Counted from the stretch's first letter, positions 37,996 through 47,000 are shown. The stretch is DNA of 64,000 nucleotides from Dictyostelium discoideum (GCA_000004695.1 CM000153.2:3904001-3968000), one strand, 5' to 3'. Notes: generated by a model not told the origin, from the letters alone. A program made the numbers and translations.

Positions 37996-38367
37996 TCAAA
38001 ATGTAATAATCGCGAATAATTAAGCGACATAAATTAATATATAAAGTTTTTATCCCTGGTAAATTACAAATATGGAAATAAATCTGTAACTGAAAAGATG
38101 TTAACAAATACAAGATTCTTAATTTATTCTCAGAAATTTTACCAACGGTTTCTTTAGTAAAATTAATTTTACTGTAAATAGTAAAATAAAATAAAAATTA
38201 TTTCATTGTTGTTTTATTCCAAATTGTGCACAAACAAAACTTATAAGTAAAAATTTATTACATATAAGTTTATATATGAGATATAATATTATTTATTATT
38301 TATTATTAATTATTTCTGTGTGTTTAAGGGTATTATATAAGTATATACAAAAGTATTTCATAGGAAT
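37996..38367. repeat. Left copy of an inverted repeat of about 372 bp. Its partner at 46241..46612 is about 90% identical in reverse complement. This copy lies about 37 bp upstream of tRNA-Asp 38404..38475.
   Basis: For example, aaaatgtaataatcgcgaataattaagcgacataaattaatatataaagtttttatc (37996-38054) is the reverse complement of gataaaaactttatatattaatttatgtcgcttaattattcgcgattattacatttt (46543-46600). Confidence 0.85.
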
Positions 38368-38403
38368 TGGAATACGACGTTAATTACAAAAAAATATCAC
38401 AAA

Positions 38404-38475
38404 TCCTTGTTGGTCTAGTGGTGAGGATTTTCGCCTGTCACGCGAAAGGCCCGGGTTCAATTCCCGGACAGGGAG
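38404..38475 (+). tRNA. tRNA-Asp (anticodon GUC), second copy
   Basis: TCCTTGTTGGTCTAGTGGTGAGGATTTTCGCCTGTCACGCGAAAGGCCCGGGTTCAATTCCCGGACAGGGAG followed by cttttttaaaaaaa (Pol III terminator). Confidence 0.9.
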
Positions 38476-38479
38476 CTTT

Positions 38480-40334
38480 TTTAAAAAAACATAAAATCCG
38501 AACTTCGTAAAAAGAAATTCAACCAGATGTGATTAGATATTCATGCATACTATTATTTAATAAAGAAGATGATATCTCAATCATTAAAACAAACATTGAT
38601 GCTATAAAAGGTAGTAAGCATCCAATAAGAGCCTTCATCTCTGAATATAACAATAAAGAAATAAGAGATGTTAGAAAAAAAAAAAACACAAGTAATAAAA
38701 ACCAACAACTACAAATACAACTAAATCAATACCATCAACTCCACCAACAACTAATGCATCAACAACCACACCAATAACAACCACACCAATAACAACCACA
38801 CAAACAACAACCACACCAACAACAACCACACATCAATTACCAACAAGCAATACAACAATCTACAACCTAAACAAAACTACTACTACTACTACTACTACTA
38901 CAAAACCTATCAATAAAATTACTACAAGCAATGGTACCAAGTTTCCAATTGCCAGTAGTATTAGAAAATAATGGAACAATTAAAATTATTACTATGGAAC
39001 TGCAGAGGTAATCAATCAACCAACGCTAAGAATAAAACAGAAGAAACGATAAAAAGAATTGGCACTCAATTAGCACTCCTAACTGAAACTAATTTCAATG
39101 GATTCAACCACCACAAAACAATGTTCAACTTTGAAAGAATAGATCATGGTTCAGGTAAAGGAACTGGCATAGCAATAAAAAATAGAGATACAAGAAAAGG
39201 CCACATATCAATAAACTTCAAAGACGATGATGGTAGAATACTATCAATTAAATACAATTCCTTTAATTCTATCAACATATTATTGATCTATGCTCCAGCG
39301 ACTATATCTGAAAGAAACACCTTCATAATCAACTCAAAATCACTGTTTAAAAAATATAATTCAATCAACCATCAAATAATAGCAGGCGACTTCAATAACA
39401 ACCACGATTGCAACAGCTTCTTCGGTACTGAATTACGTAAAATAATAGACCAAGACATGCTACTAGATACTGGTATTGAAGAAAACACTCCAACATTTCC
39501 AAGATCAATGAAGAGACTAGATAGAATCTACTGTCATCCAACACTACTAAACCAAAATTCAAAACTGGTAGTCCACAACACAGTATTTAACAAATCAGAT
39601 CACTTTCCCATCACAATCACAATACAAACCAACAGTGAAACAACAACAACAACAACAACCAAACTAGAAAGACTCCCTTGGACATTATGTAAAGAAATTC
39701 TCAACAACAAACATATACATGATGGGTTATCAGAATTAATCAGTAAGAACAAAGATAAGATCAAATCAGTGGAGGAATGGACGAAATTTAAAAATAATGT
39801 CATCAGAGATTATTTAAAAAAAGAACAAAACAAAATAAAGAAAGAAAAGAACAAAAGAAAATACGTAATCCACAAATTACTTGGAAATAGTGATATCATT
39901 CCAAAGATGAGAAAAGAACTCAATGAAGAAATAAGTAGAATATTAGAAGAAGAAAGAAAGGTAAAAGCATGGGATATCAAATTAAAACTCCACCTGCATC
40001 AAGAAACACCAAGCAAATACCTCACAAGTATCCTTAAATCCAGAGCCAAAGATAAATCAATATTCCAAATAAAAGATAAAGATAATAAGACCATATCAGA
40101 TAAAGAGAACATAGCAAAAAGATTTGTTGAATTCTATCAAGATCAATATGAAGAGAAAGAAGATAACGAAGAAACCCACAAGAAGTTATTAGAAAAATGG
40201 GAAGTAGACGTTGATTTAATCAAGAAACTCGAGATAGACAGACCGATAAGAATACATGAAGTGACCAAAGCAATCAAAACTTCAAGTATCCACAAATCTC
40301 CAGGTTTAGACGGTATCAATGCACTATTCTACAA
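38480..40334 (+). mobile_element. TRE3-type non-LTR retrotransposon, 5' part, inserted immediately downstream of tRNA-Asp. It carries the ORF1 C-terminus (T-rich tail) and ORF2 at 38971..40334 with an apurinic endonuclease domain and the start of the reverse transcriptase. It runs into the assembly gap.
   Basis: ORF2 reads MEQLKLLLWNCRGN...LALLTETN...GDFNNNHD...SDHFPITI (APE/EEP nuclease), then ...SPGLDGINALFYK (RT motif 0/1), and is truncated by the N-run. It sits downstream of a tRNA on the same strand, as is characteristic of TRE3. Confidence 0.75.
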
Positions 40335-40434
40335 GNNNNNNNNNNNNNNNNNNNNNNNNNNNNNNNNNNNNNNNNNNNNNNNNNNNNNNNNNNNNNNNNN
40401 NNNNNNNNNNNNNNNNNNNNNNNNNNNNNNNNNN
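40335..40434. other. Assembly gap (100 N) between two convergently oriented TRE3 copies
   Basis: An N-run flanked by a + strand TRE3 ORF2 and a - strand TRE3 ORF1. Confidence 0.95.
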
Positions 40435-45848: not shown

Positions 45849-45907
<59 letters not shown>

Positions 45908-46231
45908 CCAGGTTATTCAAAAAATTAAAAAAGATGGAAGGAAATTAAAGGGAAATTCACAAACAACACCACAAATATTAAGCAACACAAATGCCTACAA
46001 AAAATAAGCGAAATTGTGGATAAAACTCAATTAAAAAAAAAACAATTCAAATACGTCATAAACATCAATCACGAACCAGACGATAAAATAAAAAAAGATT
46101 TAGAAAAAAGTTTGGACAAAAAAGATGTTTTAATCAAAAAGACCCTGTAAAAAAAAAAAAAAAAATAAAATGAGATCTAGCATCTCAAGGAGAAGCAAAT
46201 AATAATTGCGTTATCCAATTCAAAAAAAAAA
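43838..46231 (+). mobile_element. TRE5-A non-LTR retrotransposon, an internally deleted copy of about 2.4 kb. It has a tandemly duplicated A-module (43838-43915 and 44040-44120), a B-module, intact ORF1 (44218..45552, 444 aa), only the first 80 codons or so of the ORF2 endonuclease followed by an internal poly-A (45851-45902), and a second B-module plus C-module and oligo-A at the 3' end. Its 5' end lies 45-47 bp upstream of tRNA-Ala, head to head.
   Basis: The modular layout matches the published TRE5-A (DRE) structure. ORF2 starts RIGVWNVQGSNTIQSASIINTVLDNNKLDAALLTETN (APE) and is then lost. 45950-46140 repeats 44225-44430. The C-module is at 46140-46231. Confidence 0.8.
44218..45552 (+). 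CDS. TRE5-A ORF1 protein (444 aa)
   Basis: Continuous ORF inside the element. Its start lies within the B-module, which is repeated at the element's 3' end. Confidence 0.75.
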   Translation: MKITNNTTNIKQHKCLQKISEIVDKTQLKKKQFKYVININHEPDDKIKKDLEKSLDKKDVLIKSNNTFKILTDSISTVIYFVNMFDAELKGQFITTIRPKNMYTDFDWYKSLTEIEWVIENEGCKLIKSEIKGETLIIKTVKRVVEEFDTIIELDNLTLIGHSNKGWRDQTSLPENQEENKNKKQSDEQQPQSTSEQIPKQGKRTIIIPPITSSSNDKTFMALDDTAQKVIEASLENVDELTRIENEINTQSINNQEIKTKSEKPIEPPSPYNTPIKQHGETKGLTTEEKLREANDIFDFTSPNTDAIRKIEFPLSIPSNQWFFSSPIKHIMSFSPTYGTPSKIIDSPSKLLNTPKKKQQDKTNKTNKTPVKPKLGEYGQKSIKTKMDEDIDNFNKEILKQINKSKNPTNTQDQQHNEQSKDQLEDKINQKLQKVDKNLPQIKL

Positions 46232-46240
46232 AATAATTCC

Positions 46241-46612
46241 TATGGAATACTCTTTTTAATTTGTATTTACTTGTGTGACCCTTGAACACACAGAAATAAT
46301 TAATAATAAATAATAAATAATAAATAATATTATATCTCTTATATAATATAATAAAACTTCCGTTTGTGCACAATTTGGAATAAAACAACAATGAATTAAT
46401 TTTTATTTTATTTTACTATTTATTCTAAAATTAATTTTACTAAAGAAACCATTGGTAAAATTTCTGAGAATAAAGTAAGAATCTTTTATTTGTTAACGTC
46501 TTTTCAGTTACAGGTTTATTTCTATATTTGTATTTTACCAGGGATAAAAACTTTATATATTAATTTATGTCGCTTAATTATTCGCGATTATTACATTTTT
46601 TCATTTTTAGCC
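46241..46612. repeat. Right copy (reverse complement) of the 372-bp inverted repeat. It directly abuts the oligo-A 3' end of the TRE5-A element.
   Basis: See the left copy. Homology starts at aattcctatggaatac, which corresponds to about 37 bp upstream of the tRNA-Asp start in the left copy. The tRNA and proximal flank are absent here. Confidence 0.85.
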
Positions 46613-46924
46613 AAAATTTAGATTGATATTTTTAAGATTTTTAAAAAAATATATACATTTTATGTGTTTTAAAATGTATGATATAAAAAACTTAAGAATA
46701 TTAAATCAAATATGGTAATAATTAATAAAAAGTTTAATTTAATAAAAAATCATTAAGGAACTTACATTAAACCCTTCCGATTCTTTAACGAATAGAAGGT
46801 GATAAGGTAGAATTAGATATGGTAATTTTTGAGCAAAAGTATCGAATATTCCCTTTTGATGTAATGGTCCTGTCTGTAGATTACCCAAAGATGGTTATTA
46901 CAATTTTTTATTTTTTTGAATATT

Positions 46925-47000
46925 TTTATTTATCAGACTTTTATATTTAATAAAATGAGGTCTCAAGAAGAAGCAACTATCAATTGCATTATTTCATCAA
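46925..47000 (+). mobile_element. Orphan TRE C-module-like fragment (aaatgaggtctcaagaagaagcaactatcaattgcattatttcatcaaaaaaaa)
   Basis: Similar to the C-module ends at 16205-16272, 42330-42399 and 46150-46231. Confidence 0.4.

Follow-up and report, generated by a model that had tools for sequence, protein, structure and literature searches.

What do the insertions crowded around three closely spaced transfer RNA (tRNA) genes owe to the genes themselves? The question is raised by a segment (positions 37996-47000) of the Dictyostelium discoideum AX4 reference genome which carries genes for tRNA-Asp, tRNA-Ser and tRNA-Ala. It belongs to a stretch of 64,000 nucleotides (GCA_000004695.1 CM000153.2:3904001-3968000; G+C 12-39%), called the window here. 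That the retrotransposons TRE5, TRE3 and DGLT-A associate with tRNA genes in D. discoideum has been on record since about 1990-2001. An earlier note on this DNA had described the segment as a nested cluster of TRE5 and TRE3 elements reproducing, within one window, the target preferences of both. The general pattern was upheld here, but a third, long terminal repeat (LTR)-like class had been overlooked; nesting was indeed found, although it was that of a TRE5-A.2 element in an LTR-like repeat and not of TRE5 and TRE3 elements. Very likely, retrotransposons integrated here again and again, guided to the RNA polymerase III (Pol III) complexes on the three neighbouring genes, and left their insertions in layers.

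According to published surveys, TRE5 elements sit ~50 bp upstream of tRNA genes (40-54 bp), their 5' end towards the tRNA 5' end, with genome-wide distances of 37-90 bp for TRE5-A and 38-95 bp for TRE5-C; TRE3 elements lie ~100 bp downstream (40-150 bp; genome-wide 14-228 bp for TRE3-A and 14-305 bp for TRE3-C); and DGLT-A, a Ty3/gypsy LTR element, precedes the sequence of the mature tRNA by 13-33 bp (mean 15) (PMC5006619, PMC5911963, PMC3159450, PMC6101501). At least one TRE is present at 61% of D. discoideum tRNA genes and both kinds at 13% (PMC5006619), so that the association seen here is not above chance for this species. The window was compared with other loci (L001-L016), among them L013, from a long-read D. 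discoideum assembly, and L016 (GCA_054883475.1 CM142510.1:1581236-1601799), from another strain; similarity searches covered 312 kb of TRE-rich loci.

A young TRE5-A.2 element inside an LTR-like repeat

Upstream of tRNA-Ala, where the earlier note had placed a TRE5 start at 43838, a TRE5-A.2 element of 2.4 kb began at 43840, on the strand opposite to the gene, head-to-head with it and 46 bp away. All three genes had been credited with such an insertion at 45-48 bp; this proved correct for tRNA-Ala and not for the other two, the TRE5-type fragment near tRNA-Ser being 141 bp off and tRNA-Asp at 38404 being preceded, at 15 bp, by an LTR-like repeat.

The element was bracketed by a perfect 14-bp target site duplication (TSD), TAATTCCTATGGAA (43826-43839 and 46234-46247). 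Its 5' part consisted of an A-module (43840-44039), a partial A-module (44040-44136) and a B-module containing the start of open reading frame (ORF) 1; ORF1 (44218-45552, 444 aa) was followed by an ORF2 remnant up to ~45850, a second B-module (~45850-46139), the last ~85 bp of the C-module (46140-46221) and an A12 tail. The B-module was thus duplicated, 44092-44407 recurring at 45840-46139. Mapped on the full-length TRE5-A.1 of L004, the element was collinear through A, partial A, B and ORF1; 3,133 bp of ORF2 were deleted (L004 14191-17323), with N- and C-terminal remnants kept, and a further 69 bp were missing at the B/C junction (L004 17701-17769). TRE5-A.2 is defined by an AB-ORF1-BC arrangement, a 72-bp BC deletion and 87 retained nt of C, and a duplicated B-module in the 3' untranslated region (UTR) is unique to TRE5-A among TRE5 families (PMC3159450). 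The element matches this definition, and nothing material sets it apart from TRE5-A.2 (formerly DRE b) as known: structure, duplicated B, 444-aa ORF1, ORF2 deletion, truncated C, A-tail and TSD are all shared, the window copy having one full and one partial A-module. Two hairpins were predicted in the terminus of the C-module (minimum free energy -11.3 kcal/mol, z = -2.56), and the stem-loop published for the terminal ~54 nt of the TRE5-A C-module is thereby predicted in this copy as well. The ORF1 protein was identical to one encoded at many D. discoideum loci. The A-module was 100% identical to nine other copies, and the insertion is therefore young. Full-length TRE5-A elements at five other loci had their 5' ends 47-53 bp from their tRNAs.

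The DNA that received this element was itself repeated. A 387-bp sequence upstream of tRNA-Asp, with termini TGTAATAA...TTAATTACA (TG...CA) and its proximal end 15 bp from the gene at 38404, was found as an inverted 86% match at 46235-46599, beyond TRE5-A.2. Once TRE5-A.2 and one TSD copy were removed, the repeat on the Ala side ran on through 43839-43807 and ended 13 bp from tRNA-Ala; the last 14 bp of this proximal piece (43826-43839) are the left TSD of TRE5-A.2. This insertion into the LTR-like repeat is the only true nesting at the cluster.

L013 yielded a third copy, oriented as the other two and standing 13 bp upstream of tRNA-Phe. By the coordinates of L013 and L016 it lies ~1.4 Mb from the locus syntenic with the window, on one chromosome-scale contig of the long-read assembly. 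It too was split, by a full-length TRE5-A.1 flanked by a 13-bp TSD (CAATTCCTTGGGA) and situated 45 bp from tRNA-Phe; within the repeat, the TRE5-A insertion points in L013 and in the window were at most 1 nt apart. The three copies (377-387 bp) were 87-92% identical and had exact ends in common, their flanks being unrelated. They stood 15, 13 and 13 bp upstream of the Asp, Ala and Phe genes, respectively, in one orientation relative to the tRNA. The paralogous tRNA-Asp at 15821 has no such repeat: it is 94% identical to the copy at 38404 over the gene plus 12 bp before and 37 bp after it, and the upstream homology stops 12 bp from the gene, at the repeat end.

Two other origins of the repeat were weighed. 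An inverted pair 8 kb apart and 86% identical could be a local segmental duplication of tRNA-flanking DNA that never moved by itself; the adjoining genes differ, however (Asp and Ala), the same end nucleotides are set in unrelated flanks, and the third copy with the same ends, ~1.4 Mb off and upstream of tRNA-Phe, refutes this origin, which is left with next to no probability. It is just as hard to credit that the DNA upstream of tRNA-Asp, from 37996 on, derives from TRE5, as had been implied earlier. Its position upstream of a tRNA would suit TRE5, and tiny A-tailed, maybe TRE5-derived remnants do occur farther out (37875-37966), but 38002-38388 had no similarity to TRE5-A.1, TRE5-A.2, TRE5-B-like or TRE5-C-like sequences among the 312 kb of TRE-rich loci, ends 15 bp and not 45-48 bp from the tRNA, and has TG...CA termini without an A-tail. 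The repeat is a dispersed, old, tRNA-targeted LTR-like element occupying the position of DGLT-A.

Two side observations concern TRE5-A in the long-read D. discoideum assembly. In L013, the TSD was separated from the start of the full-length TRE5-A.1 by eight extra nt (TAAATTTT, 1905-1912), which look like untemplated bases or 5'-extension sequence at the junction. Several copies had their A-module (promoter module, 199 bp) repeated in tandem, in one to more than 20 units (L008 5626-9905; L003 8226-9909; L009 8217-9905; L002 6612-7787), every array closing with one and the same partial unit (positions 3-99). In AX4 the copy has 1.5 units (43840-44136). The difference is due either to genuine variation in unit number or to a collapsed array in the older assembly.

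Table 1. Features of the window discussed in the text (RT, reverse transcriptase; AP, apurinic/apyrimidinic)
Feature	Position	Strand	Basis or remark
Second tRNA-Asp(GUC), paralog outside 37996-47000	15821-15893	-	ARAGORN
Short internally deleted TRE5-A derivative	15941-16272	+	89-90% to B and C parts of TRE5-A.2 (45999-46228)
24-bp A-tailed micro-insert	37943-37966	-	Perfect 13-bp direct repeat 37930-37942 / 37967-37979
LTR-like repeat copy 1, 387 bp	38002-38388		Inverted match, shared ends in three-copy alignment
tRNA-Asp(GUC)	38404-38476	+	ARAGORN
5'-truncated TRE3-type non-LTR retrotransposon, element a	38522-40335	+	End of short ORF1, AP endonuclease, start of RT
Assembly gap, 100 N	40336-40435		3,281 bp in long-read assembly of other strain
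TRE3-A 5' portion (5' UTR and most of ORF1), element b	40436-41640	-	ORF1 97% identical to P0001
tRNA-Ser(UGA)	41723-41804	-	ARAGORN
Old 5'-truncated TRE5-family 3' fragment, TRE5-C-like by structure	41946-42399	+	ORF2 tail and C-module
tRNA-Ala(AGC)	43721-43793	-	ARAGORN
LTR-like repeat copy 2, proximal 33 bp	43807-43839		Begins 13 bp upstream of tRNA-Ala
TRE5-A.2 (non-autonomous)	43840-46233	+	ORF1 identity, mapping on TRE5-A.1, published definition
LTR-like repeat copy 2, distal 348 bp	46248-46595		Beyond right TSD 46234-46247
63-bp C-module-like remnant with A-tail	46945-47007	+	14-nt near-perfect direct repeat 46931-46944 / 47008-47021

Affinity of the LTR-like repeat

Solo LTRs of DGLT-A, five to 11 of which are reported, were once named H3R (PMC5006619, PMC5911963, PMC3159450, PMC6101501). 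The repeat resembles them (compare also yeast Ty3) in its TG...CA termini, its location 13-15 bp upstream of three tRNA genes and its old, degenerate state. It differs in being longer (377-387 bp, against 265 bp for the DGLT-A LTR in Table 1 of PMC5006619), in standing in one orientation in all three copies and in adjoining no internal sequence. The DGLT-A primer binding site (PBS) TGGCGACATCGTCTTTC, located 2 bp after the left LTR, was absent from the window and all compared loci. Neither the window nor the compared loci contained DGLT-A coding sequence, as judged with a query rebuilt from Dd_DGLT-A segments read by optical character recognition from the supplement of Spaller 2016, a query which matched no D. 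discoideum protein in the database. Two additional loci from a widened sample yielded no further full copy of the repeat. Its position thus fits a DGLT-A solo LTR and its length does not, which makes the family assignment an unconfirmed candidate.

It is possible, though doubtful, that the repeat is a solo LTR of some family distinct from DGLT-A, or else a non-autonomous LTR-like element, that shares the DGLT-A target position and was not separately catalogued. Its length of 377-387 bp in three copies, against the 265 bp published for the DGLT-A LTR, would speak for this, as would two other facts: all three copies face the tRNA alike, while DGLT-A is reported both ways round, and none of them is attached to DGLT-A coding sequence or PBS. 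On the other hand, the repeats of D. discoideum have been catalogued repeatedly and only for DGLT-A was a position 13-33 bp ahead of tRNA genes reported; three copies do not suffice for a verdict on orientation, and the figure of 265 bp is taken from a published table. More specifically, an uncatalogued, extinct family of tRNA-targeting LTR elements, or a distinct DGLT-A lineage of D. discoideum with long LTRs, may have left the repeat as its solo LTR, which appears unlikely. Skipper-1 was also considered, its LTRs being 390 bp long and the element centromeric, with no tRNA association (PMC5006619, PMC5911963, PMC3159450, PMC6101501); a Skipper-1 solo LTR would be compatible in length, but was rejected in view of the surroundings of the three copies: gene-rich DNA, with a tRNA gene 13-15 bp downstream.

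Other TRE5-type insertions

At the second tRNA-Asp, an insertion starting at 15940 had been proposed by analogy, and a TRE5-A derivative does begin there (~15941), 47 bp upstream of the gene end at 15893 and head-to-head with it. It consisted of an A-module-like 5' end, a partial B-module, the C-module and an A-tail.

Near tRNA-Ser, a TRE5 start had been claimed at 41850. This was refuted: neither a TSD nor homology was found at that position, which was rejected as an element boundary, and the TRE5-type fragment begins at 41946, 141 bp upstream of the gene and head-to-head with it. It was composed of the C-terminal tail of ORF2, an (AAAT)n tract with an A-run, a C-module and an A-tail. In tblastn comparisons the ORF2 tail shared 38% identity with TRE5-A.1 and 45% with a different TRE5 tail; the C-module was 83-90% identical to TRE5-A C-modules, and no B-module match was found in 41946-42399. 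The fragment was 71-86% identical to its relatives, and CTTTTTT(TT)AATTT (41933-41945 / 42400-42413) is a candidate TSD. TRE5-C is known from short 3' fragments, with an 879-bp partial consensus and no full-length copy (PMC5006619, PMC3159450). The window fragment likewise shows a TRE5 ORF2 tail followed by a C-module with no 3' B-module, and by published structural definitions is TRE5-C-like.

It differs from TRE5-C in its distance from the tRNA, which exceeds the published 38-95 bp. Its position might accordingly be coincidental, or it might have targeted another, now lost, Pol III gene rather than tRNA-Ser. The extra distance, unexplained by any later insertion, would favour this; its orientation is canonical, however, TRE5 elements are reported to be strictly tRNA-associated (PMC5006619), and the spacer is very AT-rich and includes an expandable (AAT)n tract, so that old remnants would be unrecognisable in it. 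Either alternative is considered very unlikely, the fragment being read as an old insertion at tRNA-Ser.

Farther out, three short A-tailed sequences were noted. The 24-bp micro-insert would lie 50 bp from tRNA-Asp were the LTR-like repeat removed, and is probably a severely 5'-truncated older TRE5-type insertion. The 63-bp remnant beyond the Ala side is probably an old TRE5-type insertion displaced outward. At 37875-37929 (-), '...ttatctcaaggagcaactaac' and the A18 run after it look like the poly(A)-tailed end (~20 nt) of a TRE5 C-module; this stretch, on the far side of the LTR-like repeat from tRNA-Asp, may be what a strong truncation left of yet another TRE5 element. Short-word BLAST matches in the outer flanks were mostly poly-A.

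TRE3-type elements downstream of the tRNA genes

TRE3 copies had also been claimed immediately downstream of two genes, on the tRNA strand, at 38480 and 41650. Elements and strand were confirmed; their junctions were not immediate and lay ~46 bp from tRNA-Asp and 82 bp from tRNA-Ser. Together with the TRE5 starts, three of the five measured junctions were at classical distances (46 and 47 bp upstream, 82 bp downstream), and a fourth, that downstream of tRNA-Asp, fell within the published TRE3 range. The two elements belonged to different families and converged on an assembly gap.

Element b, which follows tRNA-Ser, was 96-99% identical at the DNA level to copies in L001, L010, L012, L013 and L014, and copies with this degree of identity carried a 1059-aa ORF2 with an RVT_1 domain. 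Those in L013, L014 and L001 lay 84, 94 and 96 bp downstream of a tRNA, respectively. Published TRE3-A has two ORFs, ORF2 with AP endonuclease, RT and zinc-finger domains (APE-RT-ZF), and a consensus of 5229 bp (PMC5006619, PMC5911963, PMC3159450, PMC6101501). Element b was assigned to TRE3-A, and not to TRE3-B or TRE3-C, because full copies directly downstream of tRNA genes (L001, L013, L014) measured 5.22-5.23 kb.

Element a, which follows tRNA-Asp, displayed an Exo_endo_phos domain (Pfam, E=2e-9) and had counterparts with 98% identity in L002 (after tRNA-Phe and its extra B-box) and in L014 (in tandem after a TRE3-A). Its ORF2 was 26-29% identical to those of TRE3-A, TRE5-A and two other families, and it was distinct both from TRE3-A and from a ~5.26-kb TRE3-B-like element. 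Truncated at its 5' end inside the short ORF1, it would reach ~4.66 kb in full length when the 5' part seen in L014 is added. The TRE3-C consensus has 4734 bp (PMC5006619, PMC5911963, PMC3159450, PMC6101501), and by elimination element a is probably TRE3-C, the family closest to it in length. Both elements thus resemble TRE3-A (formerly Tdd-3) and a second TRE3 family in their APE/RT content, downstream location on the tRNA strand and distances within published ranges, and their full-length relatives approximate the published TRE3-A and TRE3-C lengths (5229 bp and about 4.7 kb); they differ from known TRE3 elements in that the window holds only 5' portions, both reaching the gap. Database proteins matching the TRE3-type ORFs, as well as TRE5-A ORF1, were annotated as 'hypothetical protein'.

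The assembly gap

L016 is the syntenic, gap-free locus; L014 and L015 were tested for the same role and rejected. Here element a measured 4.06 kb in total, with an RVT_1 gene and an A17 tail, and CCAGATG was present at both junctions, which puts the insertion ~46 bp past tRNA-Asp (38523-38529 in the window). The octamer 'gaaattca' (38514-38521), considered as untemplated filler, was rejected as such: the syntenic copy puts the junction at the CCAGATG microhomology or TSD, so that the octamer is genomic flank. Element a was followed by ~120 bp of unique DNA and then by a TRE3-A spanning consensus positions 2157 down to 98, which is therefore 3'-truncated. A second TRE3-A abutted position 98 of the truncated one (both at reverse-complement coordinates 16916-20564). 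AX4 displays a single contiguous TRE3-A 5' end at this locus, and the second TRE3-A is either absent from AX4, as a polymorphism, or was collapsed by the assembler.

The gap in AX4 hence conceals at least 3.3 kb of convergent TRE3 elements, and the extra TRE3-A of the other strain means that either the cluster is polymorphic or the AX4 assembly has collapsed part of it. That three tRNA genes lie within 9 kb is accurate as to the genes, but this span includes the gap of 100 N.

Two further 100-N gaps were noted in the window, at 13034-13133 and 32630-32729. The latter, taken with its edges (32625-32807), corresponded to just 57 bp in the long-read assembly (L016, reverse complement 7009-7065).

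tRNA genes and neighbouring sequences

The three tRNA genes and the second tRNA-Asp, all of which had been named in the earlier note, were recovered by ARAGORN. Downstream of several tRNA genes, at 20-40 bp, a B-box-like motif (extra B-box), GAAGTTCGG(A/T)TT, was present (38495-38508 and 15789-15802 in the window; compare 41672-41686, L001 and L011), inverted relative to the tRNA after both tRNA-Asp copies. A perfect extra B-box, GGTTCGATTCC, was located at 43680-43690 (-), 30 bp downstream of tRNA-Ala, where it reads ggttcgattcc; tRNA-Ala had no TRE3 insertion.

About 200 bp downstream of tRNA-Ala, an 81-bp unit occurred in two direct copies (43330-43410 and 43440-43520) that were 89% identical and had no match in the other loci (312 kb). 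In the interval separating tRNA-Ser from tRNA-Ala, 42443-43271 (-) contained broken ORFs, among them a ubiquitin-family fragment (Pfam PF00240, E=2e-10), which have the look of a host gene in decay, frameshifted or with introns, rather than of a transposon. The ORF at 36845-37717 was an exact match to the AX4 TMEM33 homolog Q54ME7.

Implications

Identities, orientations, junctions, TSDs and relative ages of the elements, along with the independent second case of nesting in L013, were read directly from the DNA. Three classes of integration would account for them. An LTR-type element would have inserted 13-15 bp upstream of tRNA-Asp and tRNA-Ala and been left as the 387-bp solo repeat; TRE5-type non-LTR elements would insert ~46-50 bp upstream, 5' end towards the tRNA; and TRE3-type non-LTR elements ~45-100 bp downstream, on the tRNA strand. 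Each class would recognise the TFIIIC/TFIIIB complex on the tRNA gene and integrate at its own distance, LTR elements by means of integrase and non-LTR elements by target-primed reverse transcription, which would give rise to A-tails, TSDs, 5' truncation and microhomology. Insertion at a fixed distance, whatever DNA is present, means that later arrivals would split or displace earlier ones. At tRNA-Ala, the young non-autonomous TRE5-A.2 would have landed in the older LTR-like repeat, with small A-tailed remnants farther out; at tRNA-Ser, an old TRE5-C-like fragment would have ended up at 141 bp.

Such a scheme agrees with published work. The ORF1 protein of TRE5-A makes contact with TFIIIB, and both the B box and TFIIIC are required for integration (PMC3159450, PMC5911963); TRE5-A.2 is described in the literature as being mobilised in trans by the ORF2 protein of TRE5-A.1; and the integrase/RNase H region of DGLT-A binds the TFIIIC subunit Tfc4 (PMC6101501).

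Several observations weigh against it. The 141 bp before tRNA-Ser lie outside the published range, and the spacer contains no recognisable later insertion, just an (AAT)n microsatellite. The repeat does not have the published length of the DGLT-A LTR, no DGLT-A internal sequence or PBS stands beside any of its three copies, and their TSDs are A- or T-runs of 4-5 bp and as such uninformative. The 3' halves of both TRE3-type elements are outside the window sequence, and the 3' truncation of the L016 TRE3-A is unexplained by target-primed reverse transcription alone. Finally, the names TRE3-A, TRE3-C and TRE5-C-like were given by length, structure, abundance and elimination.

The locus represents known biology in an annotated reference genome, a textbook example rather than a new phenomenon. 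Its value is that of a compact teaching example in which integration position is set from the Pol III complex and not from local sequence: TRE5-A entered the repeat twice, independently and next to different tRNA genes, at points no more than 1 nt apart.

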